Below, piece by piece: positions 1 through 17,684 of a stretch of DNA of 64,000 nt. Source of the DNA: an uncultured delta proteobacterium (lineage in GTDB: Bacteria; Desulfobacterota; Binatia; UBA9968). Position numbers and translations under genes: made by a program. The DNA is taken from positions 32,001-96,000 of the forward strand of contig CAVTUQ010000010.1 of the NCBI GenBank assembly GCA_963737905.1, given 5' to 3'. The first letter of the stretch is position 1. Each line of letters begins with the position of its first letter. The notes under the pieces were generated by a model, which saw nothing but the letters and a program-made list of their open reading frames with translations, ran no database searches and was not told where the DNA came from.

Positions 1-1
1 C

Positions 2-302: not shown

Positions 303-536
303 TCAGTGAGTTGTAAGGCTGAGTCGCTCAGGCCCAACAGAGCTAAGAGTTCCTCATCGAACCCGTCCCTGCACACAATTGTTTCGGAGTGCCTCCTTGA
401 CTCCGCTACGCTTCTTCTAAAGCTTCTCGAGAATCCAAACTCAAAATCGCCTTCCGTGTGTCTTGCCGTCAACGTCGGTCTGAGGTATTGGATAGCTCAT
501 AGATCGCTCACGATAAATCGCGGAGAATTGCTAAAA

Positions 537-947: not shown

Positions 948-990
948 CGGTTCAACTACTCGAACGATTTGAAATGCTTCAACTATTATT

Positions 991-1317: not shown

Positions 1318-1540
1318 CTCTCCACCACTTGTGGTGAGTCCGTTTATCCGTCTTCTCGCGACCGCGACTCTTGTTACGAGCCAAACTCACAGGTTTCTCG
1401 CAACGGAAACGTTGCCTCTCCCCTCTTCCTTCTCAATTCGAACATCGGGTTTTGTCAATCGTTTTTTCAATCTCGCCCGGGGTCAAAAGGACGAGACGAT
1501 TTGAGCTCGCTTTCAGCTCGTGACCAAGCCAGACTTCAAG

Positions 1541-1570
1541 TTGACACCAAAGTGCCTTATCAGATATTTT
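1541..1570 (+). promoter_or_regulatory. Candidate sigma70 promoter for the Rieske/ABC cluster
   Basis: TTGACA at 1541-1546, 18-nt spacer, TATTTT at 1565-1570, about 170 nt upstream of the first Rieske gene. Confidence 0.35.
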
Positions 1571-1739
1571 CCGCCACAAATGGCGCACCGTACCAATTAA
1601 GTCAATCGGTCGCTGAAAGCCAAGTTTGCTTTCCGTTTCGACAACCAGTCGCTCAATTTTTCAGAGGTCAGACTGAATCGAACAAGACGTGCTCCAGTGC
1701 AAATCGAAAGCACGGTAAATAACAAGGAAGGAAAGAACC

Positions 1740-2906
1740 ATGGCATTGAGTTTTGACGAGAACGAAATGTTAACCCGTGTGGGTCCCGGGACGCCTGGAG
1801 GCGACTTATTGCGCCGTTATTGGCATCCCGTCGGGTTTTCTACGGAATTAAAGGATAGACCGAAGCGGAGAAGGCTTCTAGGCGAAGACCTCGTTCTCTT
1901 TCGCGATGATGCCCGCAGACTCGGGTTACTTGAGCTACGGTGCTTACACAGAGGAACTTCTCTTGAATTCGGCCATATCGAGGATGGCGGCCTGCGTTGT
2001 TGTTACCATGGTTGGCTTTACGATGTTGACGGGCGTGTGTTGGAGCAGCCGGGCGAGCCGCCGGAGAGCAGCTTTAAAGAGCGCATTCGTCAACGCGCCT
2101 ATAAGGTTCAAGAGCTTGCCGGGATCATTTTTGCCTACCTCGGTCCCGACCCGGCGCCGCTCTTGCCCCGCTACGATGTACTGGTGCGAGAAGACGGAGT
2201 TCGATCCTTGAGCGCGCGGCTGGTTCACTGCAACTATTTGCAAATGGTGGAGAACAGCGTCGATCAGCACCATTTCAAGTGGCTCCATCGAACTCCCAAG
2301 ACCAGGCACTGGAAAGAAGAAAAGCTCACTTCTGAAGTTACCGATTTCGGCATCCGCGACACGTTTACGCGCCGTGTGGGAGACGATTACTTCAGGACCA
2401 TAAGCTTATTTCTCATGCCCAATATGAACAAAGTCGGTTATCACCTGTCTGAAGACCATCCGGCCGCCTTTGCCGCTACTCACGAAGGATATGAGGCGCT
2501 ACGCTGGCGTGTTGCAGTGGATGACACTACGACCATGCACTTCACGCTCTACTTCGCTCCGAGCGTCGACGGCAAGGTAGCGGCGAAGATTCCTGAAGAT
2601 CGACAGCACGAAGGTCTCGGCGATAGCATTCCGGGGAAATATCGCTGGGACGAGGAAACGGGTTGGATTGCACGAGGCGATCAGGACCGCTGCGCGCAGG
2701 AGAGTCAAGGACCGGTTTTGGACCGAACGGCAGAACACCTGGGCGTGTCCGACGAAGGTGTCATCCTGCTGCGGCGGTTATTCAAGGACTGCATCGAATC
2801 GGTGGAGAAGGGACAAGATCCCGTGGGCGTTGTTCGAGATACGGCGAAAAACGAAATCATTCGCCTGGTGCCAGGCGAGTACAAGGTCAATCCAGCGGGG
2901 TTATAA
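1740..2906 (+). CDS. Rieske non-heme iron oxygenase alpha subunit (LigXa/phthalate 4,5-dioxygenase-like), subtype A
   Basis: LTRVGPGTPGG..RRYWHP N-terminus; Rieske ligands CLH...CCYH; mononuclear Fe motif ENSVDQHHFKWLH and DQDRCAQESQG; RBS AAGGAAGG. Confidence 0.92.
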   Translation: MALSFDENEMLTRVGPGTPGGDLLRRYWHPVGFSTELKDRPKRRRLLGEDLVLFRDDARRLGLLELRCLHRGTSLEFGHIEDGGLRCCYHGWLYDVDGRVLEQPGEPPESSFKERIRQRAYKVQELAGIIFAYLGPDPAPLLPRYDVLVREDGVRSLSARLVHCNYLQMVENSVDQHHFKWLHRTPKTRHWKEEKLTSEVTDFGIRDTFTRRVGDDYFRTISLFLMPNMNKVGYHLSEDHPAAFAATHEGYEALRWRVAVDDTTTMHFTLYFAPSVDGKVAAKIPEDRQHEGLGDSIPGKYRWDEETGWIARGDQDRCAQESQGPVLDRTAEHLGVSDEGVILLRRLFKDCIESVEKGQDPVGVVRDTAKNEIIRLVPGEYKVNPAGL

Positions 2907-2907
2907 A

Positions 2908-3999
2908 ATGCGGCCATCTGGAAACGGCTTTCTTTGGTTAGGAATAGTAGGTTTAGCCGCCACGTTAGTTGGAACTTGCCCGGTCGATGCAGCGGAAAGC
3001 GTGGACGCGATTGTCGCCGCCTCCAAAAAAGAGGGAGATGAGATTGTCTTTGTCGCCGGAGCGCAAACTTTCGGCGGACGAAAAGGCCTCGCCGAGCTGG
3101 AGACGGGCTTTAACAAGAGATTCGGCCTCAAAGCAAATATCAATTTCGCCGCCGGTCCGGATATGAATGCGCGAGCGGCGCGGCTTATCACCGAGGTAAA
3201 AGCCGGCAGAAAATCTTCCACCGATCTCTACCTCGGCTCGCAATCCCATTTCGCGCTGCTCCATAAGGAGAACGCACTAGAGATAGTGAACTATTCAGGA
3301 ATATTTCCCTGGTTAACCAAAGAGATGGAGATCTTTCCCGGAGAGGGGGTGCTCGTTTACACGTCGCCCAACGGGATCATTTACAACACCAATTTGATTC
3401 CCAAGGACAAGGCGCCGAAGAACTACATGGACTTGATTGATCCTCGCCTAAGCCCCATGTGGGCGGGGAAGTTGGCGATCCCGCCCTACGTAGCATGGCT
3501 TGCTGAGTTGTCCCTGGCGTGGGGACAGGAAAAAGTGAAAGATTTTGCCCGCAAACTGGTTGCCATCAGCGGCGGCCGGCTCCGGTACAGCGAGGAGGAA
3601 CGGATTGTCAGCGGGGAATTTCCGATCATGGCGAATATCGGAGATGCCTTCGGAGCAATGTGGACCTGGCAGGCCAAGGGAGCGCCGTTGGTTGGTGTGC
3701 CTGGTCTGAATCCGATCAATACCGACTACTTCCAGTTAGGCGTTCCAAAAAACGCCGCACATCCGAACCTGGCAAAGTTGTTCGTCGCTTTCATGGCCTC
3801 CAAGGAGGCGCAGGCCGTTCTGCAGAAGCACGAATCCCGTAGTTCTCATCTCGTAGAGGGTACGATAATGGCGAAATATCTCCGGGATAATCATATCAAG
3901 GTCCAAGAGCCCAAGGAGTCGATCGATTATTACCTCAAGGGAGACTCGGCGGAGGGGCTACAATTCAAAGAAGATCTAGCGAAGATACTGAAGCAATAA
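2908..3999 (+). CDS. ABC transporter substrate-binding protein (Fe3+/thiamine/polyamine-type cluster)
   Basis: ATG 2 nt after Rieske stop; signal peptide; YNTNLIP..APK.Y.DL.DP and PKNAAHPNLAKLF motifs. Confidence 0.88.
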   Translation: MRPSGNGFLWLGIVGLAATLVGTCPVDAAESVDAIVAASKKEGDEIVFVAGAQTFGGRKGLAELETGFNKRFGLKANINFAAGPDMNARAARLITEVKAGRKSSTDLYLGSQSHFALLHKENALEIVNYSGIFPWLTKEMEIFPGEGVLVYTSPNGIIYNTNLIPKDKAPKNYMDLIDPRLSPMWAGKLAIPPYVAWLAELSLAWGQEKVKDFARKLVAISGGRLRYSEEERIVSGEFPIMANIGDAFGAMWTWQAKGAPLVGVPGLNPINTDYFQLGVPKNAAHPNLAKLFVAFMASKEAQAVLQKHESRSSHLVEGTIMAKYLRDNHIKVQEPKESIDYYLKGDSAEGLQFKEDLAKILKQ

Positions 4000-4000
4000 A

Positions 4001-4173
4001 CAGGCCGATGAAAAAAGCCCACCTGCTTCGTTGCGCTTCGATCGACTCGCTCTAGTTGGCTTATGGCGTATGGCTCATAGCGTATGGTTCGTATGTTTCA
4101 ACTATATGCCATAAGCTATCAGCCATATGCGAACTACGCGCGCCTCGCATCTGGGACTTTTTTGATCGGCCTG
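4001..4173. mobile_element. 173-bp MITE-like element, copy 1 (with internal heptamer palindrome)
   Basis: TIRs CAGGCCGATGAAAAAAG / CTTTTTTGATCGGCCTG; near-identical copy at 10146..10318. Confidence 0.8.
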
Positions 4174-4202
4174 AAAACCGGCTTGATCAAAAGGAGGAAA
4201 TA

Positions 4203-5183
4203 TTGAAGATCGTAATTTTGGCAGTTAGCCTGCTTTTATCTTTTTCTCCCGTTGCCTCGGCTCAGCTCACCAAATTGATCGCTGGCTACGGTTCAATTAG
4301 CTCAGCGCAGTTGCCAGCCTGGATGGCGAAAGAATCAGGAATATTTCGCCAAAACGGTTTGGAGGTCGAGCTGGTTTTTTTTAGAGGAAGCACCACCGCG
4401 GTGATGGCCCTACTAGCAAGGGAAACCCCGATAAGTCAGGTGACTGGTCCGCCGGTCGTGAGTGCAAGCCTCAGGGGCGCCGATTCGGTGATGGTTGCTG
4501 GGGGAGCCGTGGTCGCGGACTACTGGCTCATGAGTCGATCAGAGACCAAAACCGCTGAGGAGCTCAAAGGGGGCTCCGTTGCCGTCTCCACGTTTGGCGG
4601 CCAGTCCGAGTTTGTCGCTCGCATTGCGCTGAAGAAGCTCGGCCTGACTCCGGGGAAGGATGTCACAATGGTGCAGATCGGAGCGCCACCGGATCGCCTG
4701 ACTGCCTTGCAGACAGGAAAGGTCCGAGGCGCTTTGCTCAACCCACCCGACAGCTTCGTCGGCGAGAAAAAGGGCTTTTACACTCTAGTGCAGGTGAGCG
4801 TGGCTACTCAGAGCACCGGAGTGGCAACAACTCGTAGATTCATTCGGGAAAATCCTGACGTCGTCAAAAAATACGTCAGGTCTCAGATCGAGGCTGTCCA
4901 CCGAATTAAGACAGATCGGGTGGCCGGGATGAATGTCCTCGTGAAATACCTCGGCCCGCAGGACAAGGAGATTCTAGAAAAAACCTACGATGACGCTAGC
5001 AATGACCGAAAGCTTCCTCCTAAACAATATCCGACACTGGAAGGCATCAAGAACATCTTAGATCCGCTAGCGGAGACGGATCCTAAGGCAAAGGCTGCCA
5101 AGCCTGAGGACTTTGTCGATATGAGTTTTATTCGAGAGCTGGATCAGAGCGGATACATTGACAGTCTATACAAGAAGAGATGA
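4203..5183 (+). CDS. ABC transporter substrate-binding protein, NMT1/SsuA/TauA family
   Basis: AAGGAGG RBS then TTG 4203; signal peptide; W.AKE.G.F...GL.VEL and LKGG.VAVS.FG motifs. Confidence 0.88.
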   Translation: MKIVILAVSLLLSFSPVASAQLTKLIAGYGSISSAQLPAWMAKESGIFRQNGLEVELVFFRGSTTAVMALLARETPISQVTGPPVVSASLRGADSVMVAGGAVVADYWLMSRSETKTAEELKGGSVAVSTFGGQSEFVARIALKKLGLTPGKDVTMVQIGAPPDRLTALQTGKVRGALLNPPDSFVGEKKGFYTLVQVSVATQSTGVATTRRFIRENPDVVKKYVRSQIEAVHRIKTDRVAGMNVLVKYLGPQDKEILEKTYDDASNDRKLPPKQYPTLEGIKNILDPLAETDPKAKAAKPEDFVDMSFIRELDQSGYIDSLYKKR

Positions 5184-5207
5184 TTCGAACAAGAACTCGA
5201 CGTAATA

Positions 5208-5258
5208 GGAAATGGAATAATGGAGTGATGGATTTAAATTCCAATCTCAGTACTCCAC
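5208..5258. repeat. 8-bp periodic repeat with inverted arm (TGGAGTAN-type)
   Basis: TGGAATAA TGGAGTGA TGG ... TCCAATCTCAGTACTCCA; same family at 7648..7687 and 24158..24177. Confidence 0.6.
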
Positions 5259-5306
5259 CGTTCTGACCTTGCCGGATGCCCACGTTAGAAAGAAGGGGAT
5301 AGACCC

Positions 5307-6443
5307 ATGTTGTCGAAGGAAGAAAACGAATTATTGACACGAGTGGGACCCGGAACGCCCGCAGGGGAGATGCTCAGACGCTACTGGTGGCCGGTGGGAT
5401 TTACCGAGCAGGTCAAGTTGAAAGGCAGTCCGACTCGCGTTCGACTGCTCAGCGAGGACCTGGTTCTCTTTCGCGATGGCAGCGGCAAGCTAGGACTCTT
5501 AGGCCTCCACTGCTCGCACCGTGGGACTTCCCTGGAGTTCGGCCGAGTCGAAGATTCCGGCATTCGGTGCTGCTATCACGGCTGGCTTTACGATGTTGGC
5601 GGGCGATGTTTAGATCAGCCGGCGGAGCCTGAAAACGGTACTTTCAAGAACCGTGTCCAACATCCGGTTTACCAAGCTCAGGAAATCGGCGGATTCATCT
5701 TTGCTTACCTTGGTCCTGAGCCCGCTCCGTTATTGCCGAACTATGACTTGTTTCTCAGGGACGACGGCGAGCGCCACATTGGAGCGGGTCATGATTTTTG
5801 CAATTGGCTGCAGCGAGCTGAGAACTCGGTCGACCAGACGCATCTCGTCGCGCTTCATGCCCCGGAATACCCGCACATGGCTTTGAAGCGGCCGGTGATC
5901 GGCTGGGAGAGAACGCGCTATGGGGCGAAGATCTCCATGCATGTGCCGGATGTAACGAAGCCGAAGCTTTCGCACTGGGTATTTCCCTCGCACACCCGCC
6001 ACACCACGGCGCGCCGCGGGCGCATACCCGACCACGCGATTCGCTTCCGCGTTCCGATGGACGATACAAATACGATGACTTTCTGGCTGAGATTCTATCC
6101 GCATAGTGACGAAGAGCACGCGAAGCCTTTCGTCATGAAAACCCTCGGGTTCGAAGACGACCAGCCGGGCGTCTATACGCGCGTCGAAGACGGCTGGTGG
6201 GGTATTGCCTCACATGACCAGGATCGCGTAGCCCAGGAGAGTCAGGGGCTCATCTATGACCGGACCAAAGAACATCTTGGGGCCTCGGACCAGGGCGTTA
6301 TCATGCTGCGCAACATGATCAAAGAATCCATCGACGCCGTTGGGCAAGGCAAAGATCCCATCTGGATTATCCGAGACGCGAGCCAAAACGAAAATATAAC
6401 TTTCGATGCCAGCATGCAGCAGGAGATCGGAGCGTTGGGGTAG
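5307..6443 (+). CDS. Rieske non-heme iron oxygenase alpha subunit, subtype B
   Basis: RRYWWP; CSH...CCYH; CNWLQRAENSVDQTHLVALH; HDQDRVAQESQG. Confidence 0.92.
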   Translation: MLSKEENELLTRVGPGTPAGEMLRRYWWPVGFTEQVKLKGSPTRVRLLSEDLVLFRDGSGKLGLLGLHCSHRGTSLEFGRVEDSGIRCCYHGWLYDVGGRCLDQPAEPENGTFKNRVQHPVYQAQEIGGFIFAYLGPEPAPLLPNYDLFLRDDGERHIGAGHDFCNWLQRAENSVDQTHLVALHAPEYPHMALKRPVIGWERTRYGAKISMHVPDVTKPKLSHWVFPSHTRHTTARRGRIPDHAIRFRVPMDDTNTMTFWLRFYPHSDEEHAKPFVMKTLGFEDDQPGVYTRVEDGWWGIASHDQDRVAQESQGLIYDRTKEHLGASDQGVIMLRNMIKESIDAVGQGKDPIWIIRDASQNENITFDASMQQEIGALG

Positions 6444-6451
6444 ATTAAGGG

Positions 6452-6547
6452 CGTTCAAATCGTTCAAACGGTTCAAGCCGTTCAAAGCGCGCAGAAGCTC
6501 CGCCGAAGGCGGATCAGCCTCTGGCTGAGATTGAACAGCTTGAACGC
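6452..6547. repeat. 9-bp periodic repeat (CGTTCAANN) arms enclosing a REP-like hairpin
   Basis: CGTTCAAAT CGTTCAAAC GGTTCAAGC CGTTCAAAG; inner TCCGCCGAAGGCGGATCAGCCTCTGGCTGA; inverted arm TTGAACAGCTTGAACG. Confidence 0.75.
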
Positions 6548-6608
6548 ATGGACCTCTAGGGTCAGACGCGCAGAGGGCGCGAAGTCGGAAACACTATAGG
6601 AGAGTACA

Positions 6609-7646
6609 ATGAAGCAACCTGTTCTTATTGCAGATAGCGTCGAAACTCTCAACCGAGATATGGCCAAGAAGAATCTCGGGGGGCATTGGCAGTTGGGTCT
6701 TGAAAGTTGTGCTCCGTACCCGGAGACCACGGTTCAGCCGTGCCTGTGGAAATGGCAGGATGTTTACGAAAGCTTGATGCGGGCCGGCGAAGTAGTCAGC
6801 ATGGAAGAGGCTGAACGTCGAACTGTGCGTCTGCTAAATCCTGCGCTCCGCGATCGTCAAGCGACCACGCATACGATTCATTTTTCGTTCCAGTATGTAA
6901 AAACAGGCGAACACGCAAGGCCGCACCGGCACACTGCCGCCGCTTTCCGCTTTATTCTCAAGGGAAGCGGTGCCTACACCACGGTCAATGGGCAAAAGTG
7001 CGTGATGGAAGAGGGCGATCTGATCCTGACGCCGCAACTTAGCTGGCATGATCACACGAACGACTCGGGAAAACCGATTATCTGGCTCGACGGGCTTGAC
7101 ATTCCCCTGGTCCAATCTCTACAGCAGCTTCTTTTTGAGCCGCACCCTGAGTACGCGCAGCCGATTGAGAAAACCAGCGAAGAGGTGGCCGGTTCATACG
7201 GTCTTGTTCGGCCAGCTGATGTACTGGCAACCGAGTTTTTTCACTACAAGTGGTCTGACACACATCGAAGATTAAACGCACTGCTTGAGGCGGCCGCTCC
7301 CAATTGCTTTGACGGCTACCTTTTGGAATATCGGAACCCAACAACAGAGGGTCCCACGATGCCGACGATCCAGTGCTCTTTGAGTCTTCTCCGCCCAAAT
7401 CAAGAAACCGAAGCGCATCGACACACCAGCACAGTCATCTACCACGCGTTTCGCGGCCGCGGCTCGAGTTTTGTTGGTGACGAGCGCTTTGATTGGGAAG
7501 CGGGGGACTCTTTCGTTGTCCCGCTTTGGTATCCCCATCGTCACGTCAATCGCGCGGCTTCGGAAGAAGCGATTCTGTTCTCGATGACCGATGCTCCAGT
7601 GTTAAAGTCTCTTGGTCTATATCGCGAGGAGCCGATGGGGGTATAG
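6609..7646 (+). CDS. Gentisate 1,2-dioxygenase-like bicupin ring-cleavage dioxygenase
   Basis: AERR..RL.NP, HRHTAAAFRF, WHDH, WLDGLDIPLV, second cupin HRHT...W..GD.FVVP.W. Confidence 0.85.
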   Translation: MKQPVLIADSVETLNRDMAKKNLGGHWQLGLESCAPYPETTVQPCLWKWQDVYESLMRAGEVVSMEEAERRTVRLLNPALRDRQATTHTIHFSFQYVKTGEHARPHRHTAAAFRFILKGSGAYTTVNGQKCVMEEGDLILTPQLSWHDHTNDSGKPIIWLDGLDIPLVQSLQQLLFEPHPEYAQPIEKTSEEVAGSYGLVRPADVLATEFFHYKWSDTHRRLNALLEAAAPNCFDGYLLEYRNPTTEGPTMPTIQCSLSLLRPNQETEAHRHTSTVIYHAFRGRGSSFVGDERFDWEAGDSFVVPLWYPHRHVNRAASEEAILFSMTDAPVLKSLGLYREEPMGV

Positions 7647-7647
7647 G

Positions 7648-7687
7648 CAATGGAATAGTGGAGTACTGGAGTATTGGGGTGCTGGAT
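7648..7687. repeat. 8-bp periodic repeat
   Basis: TGGAATAG TGGAGTAC TGGAGTAT TGGGGTGC TGGA directly after the cupin stop. Confidence 0.65.
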
Positions 7688-7757
7688 TCAAGATGCCGGC
7701 ATTGCTTTACTCGAACGGAAGAATCATCGCCGTGTTCAGAAAGAGGAGATCGTTCCA

Positions 7758-8906
7758 ATGTTAACGAAGGAAGAGAACGAGTTTCTCACCAGAGTAGGGC
7801 CGGGGACGCCCGCGGGAGAAATGTTGCGGCGCTATTGGCATCCGATGGCGTTTGTCAAAGAACTGAAGGGAAGGCCGCTGCGCAGACGAATTTTGGGCGA
7901 AGATCTTGTTCTCTTTCGCGACGAGCAAAATCGACTGGGATTGCTCGCGCTCCGCTGCTCGCATCGCGGTACTTCTCTGGAATTCGGCCACCTGGAGGAT
8001 GGCGGTTTGCGTTGCTGCTACCATGGCTGGCTTTACGATGTCGAAGGGCGGGTGCTGGAAATGCCCGGCGAGCCTGGCGACAGCACCTTCGGGCAACGCG
8101 TTCGTCACCCCGCTTATAAAGTTCAAGAGTTGGGCGGTGTGGTTTTCGCCTATCTTGGACCCGAGCCGGCGTCGCTTCTGCCGCGCTGGGACGTGCTGGT
8201 CAGGGAGGACGGTGTGCGAGCTCGGCGAGCCAGAACCGTGAATTGTAATTTTTTTCAGATGATCGAAAATTCCGTGGATCAAAATCACTTGCGCTGGCTC
8301 CATCGAACAGCCTCGACGCCAACGTGGGAGGACGGCGAGATCAATCCTCAAGTTTTCGAATATGGCGTTTTGAACACTTACACCCGGCGGGTCGCCGATG
8401 GAAAACGATATGCTCACGTTAATTTTTTCGTCATGCCGACCATGAACAAAACCGGCAATGTCGAAGAGGGTCACCCGACGGAGCACCGCGCGAGCAGTGC
8501 AGGCGAGGTGATGCGTTGGCGAGTGCCCATCGACGACACCCATACGATGCACTTCACTGTGGAATTCGGCGCTACCGTCGATGGCGGGCCGGTCGCGAAA
8601 ATCATGAAGGATGCATCTGAGCAAGGACTTGTTGAGAGCAAGCCCGGGGTCTACAAATGGGATGAATCGATCAACTGGTTTGCTCGCGGAGACCAGGACC
8701 GGGTCGCGCAGGAGAGCCAGGGACCGATCTATGACCGGACCAGTGAGCATCTGGGCTACACGGATCGGGGTGTCATCCTTTTGCGCCGTCTCTATAAGGA
8801 ATCCATCGAAGCGGTGCAGAAAGGTCTGGATCCGCTGGGCGTCGTCAGAGACTTAGGGAAAAATGAGATGATTCGGCTGGTACCGCATGAAGATTTGCTG
8901 GATTAG
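7758..8906 (+). CDS. Rieske non-heme iron oxygenase alpha subunit, subtype A
   Basis: GAGGAG RBS, ATG 7758 (MLTKEENE); CSH...CCYH; ENSVDQNHLRWLH; ARGDQDRVAQESQG; closest in window to 1740..2906. Confidence 0.92.
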   Translation: MLTKEENEFLTRVGPGTPAGEMLRRYWHPMAFVKELKGRPLRRRILGEDLVLFRDEQNRLGLLALRCSHRGTSLEFGHLEDGGLRCCYHGWLYDVEGRVLEMPGEPGDSTFGQRVRHPAYKVQELGGVVFAYLGPEPASLLPRWDVLVREDGVRARRARTVNCNFFQMIENSVDQNHLRWLHRTASTPTWEDGEINPQVFEYGVLNTYTRRVADGKRYAHVNFFVMPTMNKTGNVEEGHPTEHRASSAGEVMRWRVPIDDTHTMHFTVEFGATVDGGPVAKIMKDASEQGLVESKPGVYKWDESINWFARGDQDRVAQESQGPIYDRTSEHLGYTDRGVILLRRLYKESIEAVQKGLDPLGVVRDLGKNEMIRLVPHEDLLD

Positions 8907-9033
8907 CAGACCGATGAAAAAGGCCCATCTGCTTCGTTGCGCCTCGATCGGCTCGCTCCAACGTACGACCGTAGTACGCCTCCGCTTGCCGATCATCGCG
9001 CGCCTTGCTGCTGAGACCTTTTTGATCGGTCTG
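8907..9033. mobile_element. 127-bp MITE-like element, same family as 4001/10146 but with a different core
   Basis: TIRs CAGACCGATGAAAAAGG / CCTTTTTGATCGGTCTG; shared subterminal GCCCATCTGCTTCGTTGCGC; core CGTACGACCGTAGTACG; begins immediately after TAG. Confidence 0.75.
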
Positions 9034-9071
9034 CAAACTGGTATGGCCAGCAGCTGATGAGGGAGAATTCA

Positions 9072-10145
9072 ATGAAGAAATATGAGAGCAGCTTTCTCCT
9101 CACGGGTTGGCTCATACTGGCAGCGGCTTTCCCGGTCGGTGCAGCAGAGAGTTTGGATTCGTTAATCGCCGGGGCCAGGAAAGAACCCGAATTTACATTT
9201 ATCGCCGGGGCTCAGACCTTTGGCGGGACGAAGACTCTTTCCGCTCTCGAGGCGGCCTTCAATAAGAGATTCGGTCTTAACGCGAAAATCCGCTTCGCTG
9301 CCGGACCGGAGATGAATGCGATGGCGGCGCGGGTCATTACCGAATTGAAAAGCGGTAACAAAGCGTCCACGGATATCTACCACGGCTCCCAATCTCACTT
9401 CGCGTTGCTGCACAAAGAGAAAGCGCTGGAGCGGGTCAACTGGTCCGGCGTTTTTCCTTGGATCACTAAACCGATGGAAATTTTTCCTGAGGAAGGGCTG
9501 CTGGTTTTCACGTCGCTGCGCGGGATGATCTACAACTCCAATATCATTCCTAAAGAGAAAGCGCCGAAAACTTATGAAGACCTGGTGGATCCTCGTCTAA
9601 GTCCGAACTGGGCAGGCAAACTGGCCATTCCACCCTATGTTTCTTGGCTGGTGGAGTTGTCGATGATTTGGAGCGAAGAACGGGTGAAAAATCTTACGCG
9701 CAAATTAGTTGCCATCAGCGGAGGAAGACTCCGTTACAGCGAAGAGGAGCGGGTGGTCAGCGGCGAGTTTCCCATCGCGGCGAATATGGGCGGCGCGGTG
9801 GAGCAGATGTGGCAGTGGCAAGCCAAAGGCGCGCCGCTCATGGCGGTTATCGGCTCAACGCCGGTGCTGCCGTCTTATTTTCAATTGGGCGTGCCGAAGA
9901 ACTCCGCCCATCCGAATCTGGCGAAGCTGTTCGTGGGTTTTATGGCCTCGAAGGAAGCTCAAGACATTCTCGATAAATTGGACTTTCGTTCTTCCCATTT
10001 GGTGGAAGGAACCCGGATGGCGAAGTATTTGCGCCAAAACCCCATCAAGCTTCAAGAGCCCAAGGATTCCATTTCTTATTATCTCCAGGACGAGGAAAGC
10101 GGTTTGCAGTTTAAAGAGGAGTTGACGAGGATGCTGAAACAGTAA
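9072..10145 (+). CDS. ABC transporter substrate-binding protein, paralog of 2908..3999
   Basis: Signal peptide; shared AGAQTFGG, GSQSHFALLH, SGGRLRYSEEER, FQLGVPKN motifs. Confidence 0.88.
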   Translation: MKKYESSFLLTGWLILAAAFPVGAAESLDSLIAGARKEPEFTFIAGAQTFGGTKTLSALEAAFNKRFGLNAKIRFAAGPEMNAMAARVITELKSGNKASTDIYHGSQSHFALLHKEKALERVNWSGVFPWITKPMEIFPEEGLLVFTSLRGMIYNSNIIPKEKAPKTYEDLVDPRLSPNWAGKLAIPPYVSWLVELSMIWSEERVKNLTRKLVAISGGRLRYSEEERVVSGEFPIAANMGGAVEQMWQWQAKGAPLMAVIGSTPVLPSYFQLGVPKNSAHPNLAKLFVGFMASKEAQDILDKLDFRSSHLVEGTRMAKYLRQNPIKLQEPKDSISYYLQDEESGLQFKEELTRMLKQ

Positions 10146-10318
10146 CAGGCCAATGAAAAAAGCCCACCTGCGTCGTTGCGCTGCGATCGACTCGCTCTAG
10201 TTGGCTTATGGCGTATGGCCTATAGCGTATGGTTCGTATGTTCCAACTATATGCCATAAGCTATCAGCCATATGCGAAGTACGCGCGCCTCGCATCTGGG
10301 ACTTTTTTGATCGGCCTG
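10146..10318. mobile_element. 173-bp MITE-like element, copy 2
   Basis: Same length as 4001..4173, seven substitutions counted by eye; directly after TAA of the binding-protein gene. Confidence 0.8.
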
Positions 10319-10350
10319 AAGACTAGGTCGATAACAACAGGAAAGATTGC

Positions 10351-11484
10351 ATGTTGCCAATCGAAGAAAACGAACTGATGACCAGAGTCGGTCCCGGCAC
10401 TCCCGCCGGTGAGATGCTGAGGCGCTATTGGTGGCCGGTGGGCTTCAGCGAGGAAGTGACGCCGAAAGGCGCGCCGGTCAAGGTGCGGCTTCTCGGCGAA
10501 GACTTTGTCCTTTTTCGCGACGGCGGTGGAGAGCTTGGGCTTCTGGAGCTCCACTGTTCCCATCGCGGCACGTCGCTCGAGTTCGGGCGGATCGAGGACA
10601 ACGGAATTCGCTGCTGTTACCACGGCTGGTTATACGATCGGCGCGGCAAATGTTTGGAACAGCCCGCCGAGCCGGAAGACAGCACCTTCAAGGATCGGAT
10701 TCAGCACCCGGCGTACCATGCCCAAGAAGCGGCTGGTCTGGTGTTCGCCTACATCGGCCCCGAGCCGGCGCCGTTGCTGCCCGGCTATGACTTGCTGGTT
10801 CGAGACGACGGCTGCCGCGTGGTCGGCGGGGGCGAAGAGTTTTGTAACTGGCTGCAGCGTGCCGAGAATTCCGCCGACGGCGCGCATTCCATCGCGCTCC
10901 ATGCCGCCGGCTACCCGAACATGGCGATGAAACGGCCGACGATCAACTGGGAGCAGACCCAGTTCGGCATCAAGGAAACGACTTGGGTCGAAGGCGTCTC
11001 CCGGCCGAGAATCACCCATTTCATTTTTCCTTCACATGTGCGCCATTCGGCTGCGCGCGTGGGCGAGAATCCGCGGCAAGTGATTCGCTTTCGCGTGCCC
11101 ACGGACGATTTCAAGACGACGAGTTATTGGATTGATTTCTATCCGCATAAAGACGGAAAGCCAACCCAGCCCGCGCTGCTCAAGACGCAGGGATTCAAGA
11201 AAAGCGAGCCCGGCGTCTACAAACGGGTTCAGGACGGCTGGTGGAATATTTACACGCATGAACAAGACCGCGTCGCACAGGAATCCCAAGGGGTTATCGC
11301 CGACCGCACCAAGGAACATCTAGCGTCGTCCGACCAGGGAATCATCTTGCTGCGCAAGATGATTCGCGATTCCATCGAAGCGGTTCGAGCGGGGAAAGAT
11401 CCGCTTGGGGTAATCAGAAATCCGAATGAAAACATGTCGATAACCTTCGATTCCAGCAGGGACGCCGTGGCGGCTCTTGGCTAA
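10351..11484 (+). CDS. Rieske non-heme iron oxygenase alpha subunit, subtype B
   Basis: RRYWWP; CSH...CCYH; CNWLQRAENSADGAHSIALH; HEQDRVAQESQG; closest in window to 5307..6443. Confidence 0.92.
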   Translation: MLPIEENELMTRVGPGTPAGEMLRRYWWPVGFSEEVTPKGAPVKVRLLGEDFVLFRDGGGELGLLELHCSHRGTSLEFGRIEDNGIRCCYHGWLYDRRGKCLEQPAEPEDSTFKDRIQHPAYHAQEAAGLVFAYIGPEPAPLLPGYDLLVRDDGCRVVGGGEEFCNWLQRAENSADGAHSIALHAAGYPNMAMKRPTINWEQTQFGIKETTWVEGVSRPRITHFIFPSHVRHSAARVGENPRQVIRFRVPTDDFKTTSYWIDFYPHKDGKPTQPALLKTQGFKKSEPGVYKRVQDGWWNIYTHEQDRVAQESQGVIADRTKEHLASSDQGIILLRKMIRDSIEAVRAGKDPLGVIRNPNENMSITFDSSRDAVAALG

Positions 11485-11491
11485 AGAGAAC

Positions 11492-11521
11492 TCGAGGATG
11501 GAAGATAGAGGATGGAAGAGG
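11492..11521. repeat. 7-bp periodic repeat (GAGGATN-type)
   Basis: TCGAGGA TGGAAGA TAGAGGA TGGAAGA; related tracts at 34636..34693 and 58913..58980. Confidence 0.55.
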
Positions 11522-11542
11522 GAATGTTCTTTGGAGATTCTA

Positions 11543-12605
11543 ATGCTTAGCCTGATTACTGTGTTGTGCGTGCACATGCTTTTGGTCGGTGTTCACCAGG
11601 CCGCGGCGGCGGAACAGACCCTCGAACAACTCTTGACCGGCGCCAAAAAAGAAGGCGAAGTTACTCTCATGGCGAGCGCATCGACCTTTGGCGGGAAGAA
11701 AGGATTCGCTGAGCTCGAGGCAGGATTCAACAAAAGATATGGCTTGACATCGAAAGTTAATTTAGCGCCGGGGCCGAGCTTTCCACAGGTGGCCGCGCGC
11801 GTTCTGACCGAGCTTAAAGCCGGCGCGAAATCGTCGACGGATCTGTATCTCGGTTCGGACGGCACGATGAGCGACATGCACCGGGAAAAAGCGTTACAGA
11901 AAGTCGACTGGTCAGGTGTCTTTCCCTGGGTAACTAAAGAAATGGAAATCTTTCCCCAGGAGACATTGCTCGTCTATGCGTCATTTCACGGCATAATCTA
12001 TAACTCGAATGCGATTCCAAAAGACAAGGCGCCGAAGGGCTATGAAGATTTGGTTGATCCGGCGTTATCCCCACTTTGGGCCGGAAAAATGGCGATCCCC
12101 GCCTATATCCATTGGCTGATTCGAGTCTCGGGGAGTTGGGGCAAAGAAAAAGTCTTAGCGTATGCGCGCAAGCTCGCGCCGCTTTCCGGAGGGCGGCTGC
12201 GCCAGGGCGAGGAAGAGCGCATCGTCAGCGGCGAGTTCCCGATTATGGCGAGCACCGGCGGCGCATTGGAGGCGATGTGGAAGTGGCAAGCGAAAGGCGC
12301 GCCGCTCGGTGGGGCTGCCCGGCGCCTCACCGGCCACTTCTTCGTACTATCAGCTGGGGGTGCCGCGAAATTCAGCCCATCCCAATTCCGCTAAGCTGTT
12401 CATCGCCTTCATGACGACTAGGGAAGCGCAGGCGGTGATAGAAAAGCATGACTATCGTTCGTCCTATTTGGTCGACGGAACTCTGATGGCGAAATACGTG
12501 CGCAACAACAAGATCAAACTCCAAGATCCGCGGGAACTGAACGAGCTGTTTCAGCGGGACGATACGGCTTTGGAGGAGGAGCTCACCAGGATACTCCTGA
12601 AATAG
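11543..12605 (+). CDS. ABC transporter substrate-binding protein, third paralog; apparent frameshift near 12310
   Basis: N-part in ORF 11477..12394 (…WKWQAKGAPL) continues as VGLPGASPATSSYYQLGVPRNSAHPNSAKLF in ORF 12162..12605; break near a G run. Confidence 0.8.
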
Positions 12606-12614
12606 GACTTGACC

Positions 12615-12830
12615 ATGCCCCCTATTGATCCATTGAAGCCAAGCATCGAGGACGTGGATTTCGTCCATACCGGTCCCGCCACTTTGGCTGGAAGATATAT
12701 GCGAAGGTTTTGGCAGCCGGTCTATGAAAATGGCGTTGACCAGGCCCATGTCCCCTTCACTCATGCCAAGTCCAATTTCACCAAGTTTGGCCTCAACTGG
12801 GACATTCCCAAGATCACCGCGAGGAGTTGG
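12615..12830 (+). pseudogene. Rieske oxygenase remnant lacking the [2Fe-2S] domain, in frame with the downstream permease
   Basis: HTGPATLAGRYMRRFWQPVY joined directly to ENGVDQAHVPFTH; about 138 residues separate these motifs in the 1740..2906 paralog. Confidence 0.7.
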
Positions 12831-12881
12831 CCAAATTACTCAAACGGTAGACGGCTCAGCAATGGCGACGTAAAGGCAGCC

Positions 12882-14642
12882 ATGGAATCCACGCCAACAG
12901 CCAACAGTACCTTCTCGCTCAGACCCTTTTTCTGGGGGTTCGACGGGTCCAAGCTCGTTCTCTTCGGGCTGGCGGGAGCCGCAGCGCTGGCAATAGTGGG
13001 CCTGCTGCTCACCATCGTCTGGATGAGCCTGCGGACCGGAGTCCCGGGCCAACCTTCGCCCTATACGCTCAGCAACTACACATCGTTGCTTGCCGACCCT
13101 TACACTTATCGCGTGATGGTGACGACGTTGATCTTTTCCGCTGTTACGATCGCGGTTTCAGTTCCCTTGGGATTCGTGTTTGCGTGGCTCATCGAGCGCA
13201 CCAACCTGCCCTACAAAGCGTTCGCCATGAGCCTGCTGAGCATCGGTGTCCTCTTTCCGACTTTTTTGAAGGCGATGGGCTGGGTGTTTCTCTGCCATCC
13301 GCGGATCGGGGTGATCAACATTTTCTTGATGCAGCTTTTTGGACTGAGGAATGCTCCGTTAAACATCGCGACGTTGGGCGGCATCGGCTTCGTTCAAGGC
13401 TTAACCTTGGCGCCGCTGGCATACGTGATGATCTCTGCGGCCCTGCGCGGCATGAATCCTCTGCTGGTTGAAGCCGCCAGCGTCCACGGGGTGAACAAAT
13501 GGCGCACCCTCGTCCGCATCGAGCTGCCTCTGGTGTGGCCGGCTTTGCTCTCGGCAATCATCTGGATGTTTACCGTTGCCATCGCCGCCTTCGACGTTCC
13601 CGGCGTGATTGGCATGGCGAATAACATTTTTACCTTCAGCACTGCCGTCTATTTCATGATCAACCCCAACGAGGGGCTTCCGCGCTACGGGCTAAGCGGC
13701 GCTTACGGAACCCTCATGGTCGGGCTGTCTTTGATCTTGATGATTCCGTATTTCGTAGCGTTGAAGCAGAGCCACCGCTACCAGATCATTTCCGGAAAAT
13801 CTTACCAGTCGCGGCCCGTCGAACTCAGGCGCTGGTGGATGCTCGGTTGGGGGCTTCTTGGAACTTACTTTCTGCTGGCTTTTGTTTTGCCGTTGCTCGC
13901 CATTTTCTGGGTGTCACTGCTTCCCTACGTTCAGATTCCTTCGCGGCAAGCTCTGGCCGTCGCTTCCTTCGAGCGTTACAGTGCCATTGCCTTCGATAGC
14001 GCGCTTTTGCGAGCCGCCGGAAATACGCTGCTCCTCATGGTGATCGTCCCCACCCTTATTGTGGTGATGAGCTCGGCAATTTCGTGGATCGTGACTCGCT
14101 CGCGCCTGCGCTGGCGCATTGCTTTAGATGCGATTGCCTTTCTACCCCACCCCGTGCCCAACCTGTTGTTTGCTCTGGCGATCGCCTATTTCGCGTTGCT
14201 CGTATCCAACGTGGTTCCTGTGTACGGCACCCTCGTTGTCCTTATGGCGGTCTACGTTATTTGTTGGATTAGTTTTGGAACCAGAGTGCTAAACAATAGC
14301 ATGATTCAGGTGCACCGCGAGCTGGAAGAGGCGGCTCAGGTGGGCGGGGTTTCAACGTTTCGTACCTTTTACAAAGTGATTGTCCCGTTGATTCGTCCGG
14401 GATTGATCTACGCCTGGATCTGGACATCGCTTTCGGCATACCGGGAGCTTACCATGGCGGTTTTTCTAGCTTCGCCGAAGAGCCAGGTTCTGTCCACCTA
14501 CATTTGGGGGCAATGGCATGGTGGTGGGCTGGGCGATGCGGCGGCGATCGCCGTGATCATGATGGCGGTTATGTCCCCGCTGGTCACGACCTTTTGGATC
14601 TATGCGCGGCATCAACAACATGTCGCTTCTTCGGCAGCGTAG
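12882..14642 (+). CDS. ABC transporter permease, FbpB/ThiP-type (two fused TM domains)
   Basis: Many TM helices; two EAA loops (LVEAASVHG, LEEAAQVGG); probable start ATG 12882, ORF open from 12609. Confidence 0.88.
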   Translation: MESTPTANSTFSLRPFFWGFDGSKLVLFGLAGAAALAIVGLLLTIVWMSLRTGVPGQPSPYTLSNYTSLLADPYTYRVMVTTLIFSAVTIAVSVPLGFVFAWLIERTNLPYKAFAMSLLSIGVLFPTFLKAMGWVFLCHPRIGVINIFLMQLFGLRNAPLNIATLGGIGFVQGLTLAPLAYVMISAALRGMNPLLVEAASVHGVNKWRTLVRIELPLVWPALLSAIIWMFTVAIAAFDVPGVIGMANNIFTFSTAVYFMINPNEGLPRYGLSGAYGTLMVGLSLILMIPYFVALKQSHRYQIISGKSYQSRPVELRRWWMLGWGLLGTYFLLAFVLPLLAIFWVSLLPYVQIPSRQALAVASFERYSAIAFDSALLRAAGNTLLLMVIVPTLIVVMSSAISWIVTRSRLRWRIALDAIAFLPHPVPNLLFALAIAYFALLVSNVVPVYGTLVVLMAVYVICWISFGTRVLNNSMIQVHRELEEAAQVGGVSTFRTFYKVIVPLIRPGLIYAWIWTSLSAYRELTMAVFLASPKSQVLSTYIWGQWHGGGLGDAAAIAVIMMAVMSPLVTTFWIYARHQQHVASSAA

Positions 14643-14663
14643 GGCGGGTCATGCAACTCTGCC

Positions 14664-14706
14664 TGTTCAAATCGTTCAAAACGTTCAAGCCGTTCAAGTA
14701 GTTCAC
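14664..14706. repeat. 9-bp periodic repeat (CGTTCAANN)
   Basis: TGTTCAAAT CGTTCAAAA CGTTCAAGC CGTTCAAGT AGTTCA immediately before the ATPase start. Confidence 0.75.
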
Positions 14707-14707
14707 G

Positions 14708-15781
14708 ATGATCGGAATCCACTCCCTTAGGAAGACTTTCAAAACCGGGACTGATGCAGTCCAGGCGGTGGACGGAGTCGATCTACAGGTGAACGAGAAG
14801 GAGTTCTTCGTGCTTCTCGGCCTGAGTGGATCCGGCAAGACCACGCTGCTCAGATGCGTTGCGGGGTTGGAAAGGCCGGAAGCTGGAGAAATTGCTTTAG
14901 GGGAGCAACTAGTGAGCTCCGCGGAGCGGGGTATTTTCATCACTCCGGAGGATCGGGCGATCGGTATGGTATTTCAGTCCTATGCCGTGTGGCCCCACAT
15001 GACCGTATTTGACAACGTGGCTTTCCCTCTAACCGACGGAAAGAGAAGATTACCGCGAGCCAAGGTCCGAGATCGAGTCATGAGCGCTCTCGAATTGGTG
15101 CAGCTATCGGCCCTCGCGGATCGGCCGGTGCCCTTTCTCAGCGGAGGCCAGCAGCAGAGGGTGGCACTTGCGCGGGCGCTGGCTGTGGAGCCAAAGGTGC
15201 TTTTGATGGACGAGCCTTTGAGTAACTTGGACGCCCGGCTGAGAGAAGAAGTTCGAGATGAGATCAGGGGCTTGGCAAAAAAACTCGGAATCACGGTCCT
15301 GTACGTGACTCACGATCAGGTGGAAGCGATGGCGTTGGCTGACAGAATCGCCGTGATGAGCTCGGGAAAGATTTTACAGATCGGCGTGTCTAGAGACCTG
15401 TATCATTTTCCTCTCAACCGGAAGGTAGGCGAATTTTTGGGCTCGATGAACGAATTCGAGGGCGCGCTGCAACCTGATGGCAGTGTCAAAATCGATTTTG
15501 GGGTCGTGAATTGCACCGTCCCGAACGGCACCGTCAAAGAAATGATTGTCGCCATCAGACCCGAAGATGTTTCGCTATCGCGGGAACCGAGTGGTTTAAG
15601 CAATGAGTTCCCGGCTCAACTGGTCTCCCAGCTTTTCCTCGGGGACATTACCCTCTATCACCTCTCTGCCAAGGGGAAAAACCTGCGAGGTAAGACGGCA
15701 GGTACGGATCAACAATTGGAACCAGGTAGCTCCATCTACGTCCGGCTTCCTGGAGAAAAACTGAAGATCTTCCCGAGGTGA
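14708..15781 (+). CDS. ABC transporter ATP-binding protein (FbpC/PotA-like)
   Basis: Walker A GLSGSGKT, signature LSGGQQQR, Walker B LLMDEP, H-loop VTHD, C-terminal TOBE-like region. Confidence 0.93.
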   Translation: MIGIHSLRKTFKTGTDAVQAVDGVDLQVNEKEFFVLLGLSGSGKTTLLRCVAGLERPEAGEIALGEQLVSSAERGIFITPEDRAIGMVFQSYAVWPHMTVFDNVAFPLTDGKRRLPRAKVRDRVMSALELVQLSALADRPVPFLSGGQQQRVALARALAVEPKVLLMDEPLSNLDARLREEVRDEIRGLAKKLGITVLYVTHDQVEAMALADRIAVMSSGKILQIGVSRDLYHFPLNRKVGEFLGSMNEFEGALQPDGSVKIDFGVVNCTVPNGTVKEMIVAIRPEDVSLSREPSGLSNEFPAQLVSQLFLGDITLYHLSAKGKNLRGKTAGTDQQLEPGSSIYVRLPGEKLKIFPR

Positions 15782-15857
15782 TGGCTTTTGCTATTTGAAT
15801 TTTTGGATGGCGGAGCGAGTTCGATGACAACAGACGCAATAACAGATGGGAGGAGCC

Positions 15858-16397
15858 ATGAGCCGACTACCACTTATCAACCGTGATGCGTTGTCGCCGG
15901 ACGATCAAGCGGTTTGGGACCGGATCGCCGCGGTCCGCACTGGAGTGCGCGGACCCTTCGGAGCATTGATGCATGTGCCAACTCTCGCCGACCGCGTCGC
16001 CGCGCTGGAGGATTACTTTCGTTTCAACGCAGCCCTGCCGGCGGTCGACCGCGAGCTCGTGATTATGGCCACCGCTCGCGAGATGGGCGCGCGTTACCCG
16101 TGGGCACGGCACGAGGCCAGAGGGCGCGAGGTGGGCACGAGAACAGAGGCGATCGAAGCGGTACGCGCCAACGGCACGTTGGAGCAATTGACGCCGCGCG
16201 AGCGTTTGCTCGTGGAAATCGTGCGCGCTCTCTTGCGCACGCGGGCGTTGCCCGACGAGTTGTATGCGCGCGGGGTGGCTGAACTGGGCCGCCAACAGCT
16301 GATCGAGATGGTCGGGCTCGTCGGCCATTACAGCTTGATCGGACTTACCGTGAACGCTTTCGATGTCGCGCCGCCGGATAACAGTCAGACATTCTGA
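15858..16397 (+). CDS. Carboxymuconolactone decarboxylase/AhpD-like family protein
   Basis: GGAGGAG RBS; GPF..L.H.P, RELVI.ATAR....YPW..H pattern. Confidence 0.75.
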   Translation: MSRLPLINRDALSPDDQAVWDRIAAVRTGVRGPFGALMHVPTLADRVAALEDYFRFNAALPAVDRELVIMATAREMGARYPWARHEARGREVGTRTEAIEAVRANGTLEQLTPRERLLVEIVRALLRTRALPDELYARGVAELGRQQLIEMVGLVGHYSLIGLTVNAFDVAPPDNSQTF

Positions 16398-16449
16398 ACT
16401 GTGTACAGAAGGTTTCAGTTTCAGAGGAAAGAGTGAGTGTATGTAATGT

Positions 16450-16605
16450 TCATAAATCTCCCTTTGCTCCCATATTCCGGGATCGGAAGGAAGTAAGGAC
16501 CGAGGCCGTGGCCAAGACGAGAAAGAGCAACGAGATGGGCTGGGTGACGAAAACCGTGGGGTCGCCTCGGGACTCGACCAGCGCGCGCCGAAAGTTGGTC
16601 TCTAA
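16450..16605 (-). pseudogene. C-terminal remnant of TctA-type tripartite tricarboxylate transporter permease
   Basis: Manual translation LETNFRRALVESRGDPTVFVTQPISLLFLVLATASVLTSFRSRNMGAKGDL*; E.NFRRAL..S.GD...F...PIS matches the TctA C-terminus. Confidence 0.6.
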
Positions 16606-16607
16606 CC

Positions 16608-17636: not shown

Positions 17637-17684
17637 ATTCCGTTTCCTTAGGATCGAGCTTTCCAGGCCTCTTTCAATGACGGC

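Follow-up and report, generated by a model that had tools for sequence, protein, structure and literature searches.

The phthalate and isophthalate dioxygenases of Comamonas testosteroni KF1 (PDB entries 7fjl, 7v25, and 7v28 and entries 9ina and 9ioy, respectively) and a Cupriavidus enzyme (7fhr) are Rieske oxygenases with an alpha-only fold. KF1-type phthalate and isophthalate systems have a dedicated reductase that contains flavin mononucleotide and a [2Fe-2S] cluster, as well as binding proteins of the tripartite tricarboxylate transporter type; among Rieske oxygenases at large, shared or unlinked electron-transfer partners are common. Here, we describe a related but distinct arrangement from an uncultured soil delta proteobacterium of the Binatia (GenBank assembly GCA_963737905.1, contig CAVTUQ010000010.1). 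A 64-kb stretch of this contig (the window) carries, between positions 1740 and 16397 and with every gene on the + strand, an array of Rieske oxygenase alpha subunit genes (R1 to R4) interleaved with genes for periplasmic solute-binding proteins (SBPs; S1 to S3), followed by one ATP-binding cassette (ABC) permease gene and one ATPase gene. The window oxygenases have the same alpha-only fold as the KF1 and Cupriavidus enzymes, and R4 shares their CxH/CxxH and D-x2-H-x4-H motifs. Compared with the KF1 dioxygenases, however, they have a shorter catalytic domain (377 to 388 amino acids versus about 440) and are 29 to 31% identical overall. Moreover, four to five paralogues occur in a row here, accompanied by ABC-type SBPs and with no reductase gene nearby.

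Another system that invites comparison is LigXa, the oxygenase of the 5,5'-dehydrodivanillate (DDVA) O-demethylase from Sphingobium SYK-6. A passage of PMC6874591 gives ligXa, ligZ, ligY, ddvK, and ddvR as the members of the DDVA cluster and mentions LigXc and LigXd only as components apart from it; thus, as in the window, an oxygenase gene is clustered with transporter and ring-cleavage genes, and ferredoxin LigXc and reductase LigXd are absent from the cluster as that passage lists it. The name LigXa also recurs in the source annotations of relatives of the window oxygenases, which show a partial match to the Pfam family LigXa_C (about 52 to 63 of 304 positions). The SYK-6 system has a major facilitator superfamily transporter, a TonB receptor, and one oxygenase, whereas the window has an array of oxygenases with ABC binding proteins.

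The use of several SBPs by one translocator is also known, although a passage of one review calls it relatively rare (PMC3971661). The HisJ-ArgT/HisQMP importer of histidine, lysine, and arginine and the Opp importers likewise have several paralogous SBP genes and one set of translocator genes. By comparison, the loci described here have up to four or five SBPs, each joined to a gene for a catabolic enzyme, and some of the SBP genes lie on contigs other than that of the permease, such that docking on it would occur in trans. Every part of the locus is therefore from a known family, and unlinked reductases and multi-SBP importers both have precedents. Nevertheless, we found no description in the literature of an iterated array of strictly cognate oxygenase-SBP cassettes on one translocator that is conserved throughout a candidate phylum. 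No paper on Rieske proteins of the Binatia was found, and among titles of the Binatota literature on aromatics and dioxygenases, we found no work on this locus; a further match concerned an unrelated phthalate cluster linked to a tripartite ATP-independent periplasmic transporter.

Pairing of Oxygenases and Binding Proteins

We aligned S1 and S2 with seven relatives and scanned the GTDB species-representative genomes with this alignment, which yielded 52 related loci. Most are from metagenome-assembled genomes (MAGs) titled Candidatus Binatia, "delta proteobacterium," Thermodesulfobacteriota, or Syntrophobacter, while three are labelled Verrucomicrobia; Candidatus Binatota is also the commonest taxon in the protein atlas. 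The closest locus, L049, is 89 to 95% identical to the window at the amino acid level for R2, R3, R4, the permease, and the ATPase. Trees were built from the 104 Rieske proteins and 83 SBPs of the 52 loci and the window, and each resolved into five clades (R1 to R5 and S1, S1b, S2, S3, and S5). Upstream Rieske genes that were partial or fell outside the clades were assigned by their best window paralogue.

The pairing between the two families is strict. All 83 of the tree-placed SBP genes have the cognate Rieske clade upstream, in 82 cases as the immediate neighbor and in one case separated by a racemase gene. S1 follows R1 in 26 of 26 cases (including the one with the racemase gene), S2 follows R3 in 23 of 23, S3 follows R4 in 25 of 25, S5 follows R5 in 5 of 5, and S1b follows R2 in 4 of 4. 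For two clades, the relationship is complete in the reverse direction too, as R1 is followed by S1 (19/19) and R4 by an S3-type gene (22/22). The window itself conforms: R1 (1740-2906) precedes S1 (2908-3999), the ATG of which is 1 nt past the R1 stop; R3 (7758-8906) precedes S2 (9057-10145, with the Met at 9072 serving as the start in relatives); and R4 (10351-11484) precedes S3 (11543-12596). R2 (5307-6443) has no binding protein of its own here.

Across loci, these cassettes are gained, lost, and relocated as units. For instance, L025 has R1-S1-permease-ATPase alone, many loci (including L005, L007, and L011) have the order R3-S2-R4-S3-permease-R5-S5, and S2 has been lost from L043, L045, L047, and L049. 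An earlier note on this DNA, made from the sequence alone, had proposed modular oxygenase/SBP cassettes, and the consistent pairing together with this behavior bears the proposal out. The same note had reported four intact Rieske alpha subunits plus a fifth remnant, three paralogous SBPs each directly 3' of a Rieske gene, an NMT1-type SBP, and a gentisate dioxygenase-like cupin. Pfam and motif searches, and blastx for the remnant, confirmed all of these, with the qualification that S3 is frameshifted.

Sequence relationships within the two families support co-duplication of the cassettes only in part. R1 and R3 are 64% identical and R2 and R4 65%, with 48 to 51% between the two pairs; S1 and S2 are 67% identical, S3 is 56 to 59% identical to both, and the five SBP clades are 54 to 69% identical to one another. 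The Rieske tree has the topology R5|((R1,R3),(R2,R4)), and the SBP tree has the topology S3|S5|(S2,(S1,S1b)). Four cassettes (R1/S1, R3/S2, R4/S3, and R5/S5) are congruent between the trees, where one topology in three would agree by chance. The co-phylogeny suggested in the earlier note thus held for these four cassettes and failed for R2/S1b: S1b, the SBP behind R2 in four loci, stems from the S1 lineage, and an approximately unbiased (AU) test of a group named after the tree had been seen rejects S1b plus S3 (p-AU 0.007). Because the R2/S1b trees disagree, strict co-duplication of whole cassettes is rejected as a general rule. The trees suggest instead that cassettes mostly duplicate as units and that binding proteins can also be reassorted.

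The three MAGs labelled Udaeobacter or Verrucomicrobiia (L001, L024, and L046) carry the same array, with 61 to 86% identity to S1/S2, in one case on a 63.8-kb contig. Their presence could reflect misbinning or transfer.

A Presumably Shared Transporter

The array ends in a fused two-domain ABC permease (12882-14642, with an uncertain start at 12882-12999), in which two BPD_transp_1 domains were detected, and an ATPase with a C-terminal TOBE domain (14708-15781; Pfam and NCBIfam). The permease is 78 to 93% identical to its relatives. Its best NCBIfam match is PhnU2 (134 bits versus a cutoff of 593), and that of the ATPase is PhnT2 (310 bits versus a cutoff of 458).

Permeases of this family never number more than one per locus, and 31 of the 52 loci have one. 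Among these 31, the ATPase gene is adjacent in 14 and absent despite at least 1.2 kb of following sequence in another 14, and three reach the end of the contig. Ten further loci, with at least 8 kb of flank on each side, have R1-S1-R2 alone and no permease of this family, and several MAGs with a lone R1-S1-R2 carry a permease-bearing module on another contig. In the window, three S-type SBPs and the NMT1-type SBP N1 are set against one permease and one ATPase. Because there is never more than one permease and there are permease-less R1-S1-R2 loci, the simplest reading is that the transporter is shared among the SBPs, partly in trans, with docking on a common permease presumed. This supports the shared transport proposed in the earlier note. 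The note's claim of a single permease/ATPase pair stands for the cluster and fails for the window as a whole, where a second set (51392-54293) comprises an SBP_bac_6 protein and a fused two-domain permease with 32% identity to the cluster permease; a DsbA-like gene follows it, and there is no ATPase.

Broken Genes in the Array

Two parts of the array show decay or apparent decay. According to tblastn, S3 lies in two reading frames. A single additional base near 12247 sets it apart from all of the related loci aligned, even the nearest of them (92% nucleotide identity), and no long homopolymer is present at the site. The break may equally be a pseudogene or an assembly error, and split genes are also present in several related long-read MAGs.

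Between S3 and the permease lies the remnant of an R5-clade Rieske gene (12615-12827), with no cognate S5. Pfam alone detects it weakly (VanA_C, E 0.006), but blastx aligns positions 12660-12827 with the R5 proteins of both L043 and L002 at 91 to 94% identity (E 2e-17 and 2e-9). The remnant runs straight from residues 1-22 into residues 159-192, such that the whole Rieske [2Fe-2S] domain and everything past residue 192 are gone. The gene order in L043 is S3-R5-S5-permease, and the window therefore lost most of an R5-S5 cassette. The ATG of the remnant (12615) is in frame, without a stop, with the permease ORF, which is open from 12609. If translated from 12615, the permease could bear a foreign N-terminal extension of about 90 residues.

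The Oxygenases

R1 to R4 all match the Pfam Rieske family (E 2e-19 to 4e-16, the latter for R1) and have a short C-terminal match to LigXa_C (30 to 39 bits versus a cutoff of 27). That match, from a profile comparison, spans positions of about 202 to 265 of the 304 in the profile. The CxH-x(15-17)-CxxH motif of the Rieske [2Fe-2S] cluster is kept in all four genes, as are the N/E/D-x2-H-x4-H and D252 columns of the mononuclear iron site. Across 31 aligned sequences, C69, H71, C88, and H91 are invariant, and so are the iron-site columns N166, E172, D176, H179, H184, and D252. The alignment suggests a bridging and a distal Asp at this site, and which Asp serves as the ligand can be assigned only provisionally. 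No beta-subunit family was found among the Pfam matches of window ORFs.

Both sequence and predicted structure place R4 nearest the phthalate family. In PDB searches by sequence, where alignments cover the N-terminal ~190 residues, the best matches are 7fhr (E 9.5e-54), phthalate dioxygenase 7fjl (E 1.2e-48), and isophthalate dioxygenase 9ina (E 5.3e-40), and the R4 iron-site motif lines up with the same motif in 7fhr. An AlphaFold model of R4 (predicted local distance difference test score [pLDDT], 81.4) has a query-normalized template modeling score (TMq) of 0.78 to 0.81, with 29 to 31% identity, to the phthalate and isophthalate dioxygenases 7v25, 7fjl, and 9ina. The scores of NdmA, SxtT, GxtA, and the carbazole dioxygenase CarAa are well behind (TMq 0.57 to 0.71 for NdmA, SxtT, and CarAa). 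The R proteins also match NCBIfam GbcA and SdmA weakly, far below the cutoffs.

The subfamily of R4 is large, with 5872 proteins at E<=0.001 among 8000 candidates scored, and very abundant in soil metagenomes; database relatives are automatically named "DDVA O-demethylase" without evidence. Among 15 longer relatives of R4 (E<=1e-20; 35 to 39% identity), 8 are fused to an O-methyltransferase (PF00891; P0395, P0397 to P0400, P0402, P0403, and P0405) and 4 to an NMT1-type SBP. The methyltransferase fusions hint that members of the wider subfamily act on phenolic or methoxy-aromatic compounds. The other four proteins (P0392, P0393, P0394, and P0396; 725 to 736 amino acids), one of which is labelled Candidatus Binatia, consist of a Rieske oxygenase of the R4 subfamily, a hydrophobic linker resembling a signal peptide or transmembrane segment, and an NMT1-type SBP. 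N1 of the window is 32% identical (E 7e-52) to their binding part, linker included. Judged from the protein sequences, they may represent either oxygenase-SBP fusions that span the membrane or gene calls that ran on from one gene into the next; if real, they would connect this oxygenase family with SBPs in a second way that is independent of the array.

The Binding Proteins

S1, S2, and S3 belong to the SBP_bac_1/6/8/11 families by Pfam (SBP_bac scores of 27 to 39 bits versus cutoffs of 24.6 to 27), in a group that is very abundant in metagenomes and whose members carry the source annotation "iron(III) transport system substrate-binding protein." Read by eye, the S proteins and N1 have hydrophobic, signal-peptide-like N termini, with AxA-like sites in the S proteins.

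By sequence, the best PDB match of S2 has an E value of 0.0035. Its AlphaFold2 model is confident (pLDDT, 93.3), and Foldseek matches it to many SBPs with a probability of 1.00. The best fold neighbor is the metal-citrate binder MctA (7f6e and others; TMq 0.67 to 0.70, 18 to 20% identity), with a slight lead over ferric, pyridoxal 5'-phosphate (PLP), and sugar phosphate binders. The metal-chelated substrates that the earlier note had raised as a possibility might accord with this neighbor, despite its slim lead. The next neighbors are a PLP binder (P5PA), an Agrobacterium SBP, ferric binders, glucose-6-phosphate binders, and PotD (13 to 20% identity). S2 thus shares a fold class (TMq 0.60 to 0.70) and Pfam families with MctA, FbpA/HitA/FutA, P5PA, and AfuA, but it is only 13 to 20% identical to MctA and the ferric binders (14 to 18% for the latter). 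In a single phmmer alignment, a weak point, the MctA tyrosine of the Y221A mutant corresponds to a valine in S2. The model would place S2 among the binders of metals and organic anions, without naming a ligand.

N1 (4203-5183) is an NMT1/SsuA-type SBP (Pfam NMT1_2, E 3e-14; TIGR01728, 69 bits, below the cutoff) that starts with TTG behind AAGGAGG and has no cognate permease nearby. In five related loci (L015, 2073-8067; L016, 153-3203; L018, 2620-7506; L005; and L017), two to five tandem NMT1-type SBP genes lie directly upstream of R3. They are 25 to 35% identical to N1, and no NMT1-type permease was seen in their flanks. A second NMT1-type gene in the window (16797-17684, - strand) is split into two ORFs.

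Ring Cleavage and Electron Supply

A bicupin ring-cleavage dioxygenase gene lies between R2 and R3 (6609-7646; two Cupin_2 domains). It matches gentisate 1,2-dioxygenase 3bu7 over its full length (E 1e-71) and shares its bicupin architecture with gentisate 1,2-dioxygenases (3bu7 and 2d40) and the 5-aminosalicylate 1,2-dioxygenase MabB. However, its scores for MabB (312 bits versus a cutoff of 650) and for gentisate 1,2-dioxygenase TIGR02272 (282 bits versus 442) are below both equivalog cutoffs, and a substrate is therefore not assignable.

The earlier note had taken this bicupin to provide ring cleavage shared by the cassettes, an idea that comparison with relatives does not support. An orthologue (81 to 82% identity) is in the array of only two of the 52 loci: L012, which alone shares with the window the insertion of both bicupin and N1, and L001, where the bicupin alone is at the edge. 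Other loci have LigAB-type enzymes or a distant bicupin. LigB/LigA genes are immediately before R1 in L003 and L043, and LigB is past the ATPase in L019 to L025; in other loci, R1 is preceded by a distant bicupin (37 to 39%), an enoyl-CoA hydratase gene, a citrate-synthase-like gene, or a CoA-transferase gene. UbiD and dienelactone hydrolase genes are also found beside the array in relatives, and Amidohydro_2, SDR, and AMP-ligase genes are downstream as in the window. From these gene contents, the neighborhood appears aromatic-catabolic, with a ring-cleavage enzyme whose type varies between genomes.

Searches for an electron donor gave a consistent negative. In the window, Pfam detected no reductase, ferredoxin-reductase, or ferredoxin domain, either among the 18 plus 36 main ORFs or among 56 further ORFs in the gaps, and no Fe-S cysteine motif occurs outside the four Rieske genes among 780 stop-to-stop frames of at least 45 amino acids. 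Also, no reductase or ferredoxin was found among all 208 cluster representatives of the 372 flanking ORFs of at least 80 amino acids in the 52 loci (699 kb), where the sole iron-sulfur or flavin matches are fumarate reductase/succinate dehydrogenase subunits in L020, L022, and L025. None of the 15 longer R4 relatives has a fused reductase or ferredoxin domain, a blank that is weak evidence. The lack of a reductase in 64 kb, as the earlier note had observed, is thus real and extends to the flanks of related loci. It is not distinctive, however, because the SYK-6 LigXa cluster is described in the same way in the cited passage of PMC6874591. The electron donor would presumably act in trans.

Proposed Function and Alternatives

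We propose, with moderate confidence, that the Binatia use this locus to take up and degrade several related anionic aromatic compounds, with cassettes that feed one importer. The likeliest compounds would be aromatic acids of plant or humic origin, either benzoates with substituents or acids that are phthalate-like or methoxylated, and the ligand of each SBP would be the substrate of the adjacent oxygenase. In this proposal, secreted S1, S2, and S3 (and S5 in relatives) would each capture one compound in the periplasm, and the loaded SBP would dock on the single fused permease/ATPase, leading to import. The alpha-only Rieske oxygenase encoded just upstream (R1, R3, R4, or R5) would then hydroxylate or demethylate the imported compound, and ring-cleavage enzymes, the bicupin here and LigAB elsewhere, would act on the product. 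A reductase, alone or together with a ferredoxin, would supply the electrons; its gene would lie in another part of the genome, and the oxygenases would probably share it.

Several observations weigh against this proposal. All loci are from one lineage (Binatia and variously labelled MAGs), and their gene adjacency is partly shared inheritance. The trees disagree for R2/S1b. R2 is followed by an SBP in only 4 of 22 cases, and in 4 of 24 cases R3 is followed by R4 without an SBP while R3 remains intact; an oxygenase evidently can do without a private SBP. In the window, S3 is frameshifted, and 14 of the 31 permease-bearing loci lack an adjacent ATPase. In NCBIfam, the permease and the ATPase match putative 2-aminoethylphosphonate components best, even if far below cutoffs, and S2 is 13 to 20% identical to any solved SBP, with ferric-ion binders scoring nearly as high as organic-anion binders.

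Some of these observations would suit a historical accident, in which a tandem array has been inherited vertically in one lineage while its SBPs and oxygenases act on unrelated substrates. The close relationship of the MAGs behind all 52 loci, the limited congruence of the deep co-phylogeny (four clades, at a one-in-three chance, with failure for R2/S1b), and the lack of an adjacent SBP for R2 (18/22) and for four R3 genes are all compatible with it. Nevertheless, we consider an accident unlikely, given that the adjacency holds in 83 of 83 cases through rearrangements, insertions (N1, bicupin, and racemase), and deletions, that R-S modules move as units to other contigs, that the gap between R1 and S1 is 1 nt, and that related Rieske proteins appear fused to NMT1-type SBPs in four protein clusters.

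Other accounts concern what is transported. The oxygenases could be monooxygenases or demethylases of small, charged aliphatic molecules (e.g., quaternary amines, aminophosphonates, or polyamines) that enter the cell in the manner of PhnSTUV or PotABCD substrates. The PhnU2 and PhnT2 matches of the transporter, the weak GbcA and SdmA matches of the Rieske proteins, and the presence of PotD among the fold neighbors of S2 point in this direction. We regard non-aromatic substrates as improbable, though, because those NCBIfam matches are far below their cutoffs (593 and 458 bits for the transporter components and 600 to 670 bits for the oxygenases), phthalate and isophthalate dioxygenases are the closest oxygenases of known structure in sequence as well as in fold, and the window and its relatives have bicupin or LigAB ring-cleavage genes within or next to the array. 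Alternatively, the importer might take up iron or a metal chelate and supply metal generally (e.g., to iron-rich oxygenases) rather than oxygenase substrates, as the iron(III) annotations and the fold neighbors HitA, FbpA, FutA, and MctA would lead one to expect. We find this very doubtful: uptake of one metal does not readily account for five diverged SBP clades that each accompany a single oxygenase clade, identity to the ferric binders is low (14 to 18%), and the valine at the MctA Y221 position, though a weak point, also argues against it.

Other Features of the Window

Two kinds of intergenic element recur in and around the array. Tandem repeats with a 9-nt period, (GTTCAANNN)n, occur in four to six units in the R2/bicupin spacer (6444-6494), upstream of the ATPase gene and reaching into its start codon (14656-14715), and at 24987-25019 (+ strand), 25071-25103 (- strand), and 34556-34588. 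A three-unit pattern of the repeat has 11 matches versus 0.00 expected, and 12 of the 52 related loci have such repeats, again following an R2, R3, or permease gene. One possibility is a lineage-specific array that binds protein or RNA.

The other element is 140 to 190 nt long, has terminal inverted repeats, and is found after S1, S2, and R3 and also in L001 (3443-3545). Copy A (3999-4192; -79.6 kcal/mol, z -7.1) and copy B (10144-10337) are 93% identical, compared with 62 to 73% in the flanking paralogous coding DNA, and a degenerate copy without the central insert is at 8902-9041 (-61.5 kcal/mol, z -6.3). The element may be a hairpin that stabilizes or processes mRNA behind SBP genes, or it may be a small mobile palindrome. 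An Rfam scan of positions 1-17500 at E<=1 found no match, and a scan for promoters and terminators was uninformative (3 promoter-like sites versus 7.9 expected and 22 terminator-like sites versus 20.5 expected).

A CMD/AhpD-family gene (15846-16397) adjoins the cluster and is not conserved at this place in relatives. The G+C content rises to 0.61 across 16 to 20 kb of the window. A foreign island was rejected as the explanation, as the genes in that segment (PepX_S15, Amidohydro_2, SDR, and AMP-ligase) keep their synteny in relatives.

Implications

The strict pairing of oxygenase and SBP genes is the interesting part of this locus; the absent reductase by itself does not matter. We also posit, tentatively and as an idea that could well prove wrong, that the two-gene cassette of a cytoplasmic Rieske oxygenase and a periplasmic SBP for the same compound may be a unit of catabolic innovation in the Binatia. 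Up to five SBPs, some of them encoded at a distance from the permease, would serve one translocator, the range of compounds would evolve by the duplication, swapping, and loss of cassettes, and some partners would be fused into one polypeptide made of an oxygenase, a membrane-spanning linker, and a binding domain. If true, four or five SBPs on one transporter would be an extreme case of the arrangement that a passage of the review calls relatively rare (PMC3971661). Moreover, if the SBPs recognize the substrates of their oxygenases, testing the soluble SBPs in simple ligand screens would yield substrates for an entire family of oxygenases that are otherwise unassignable, and these assignments would reveal the diet of an abundant soil phylum that is uncultured.

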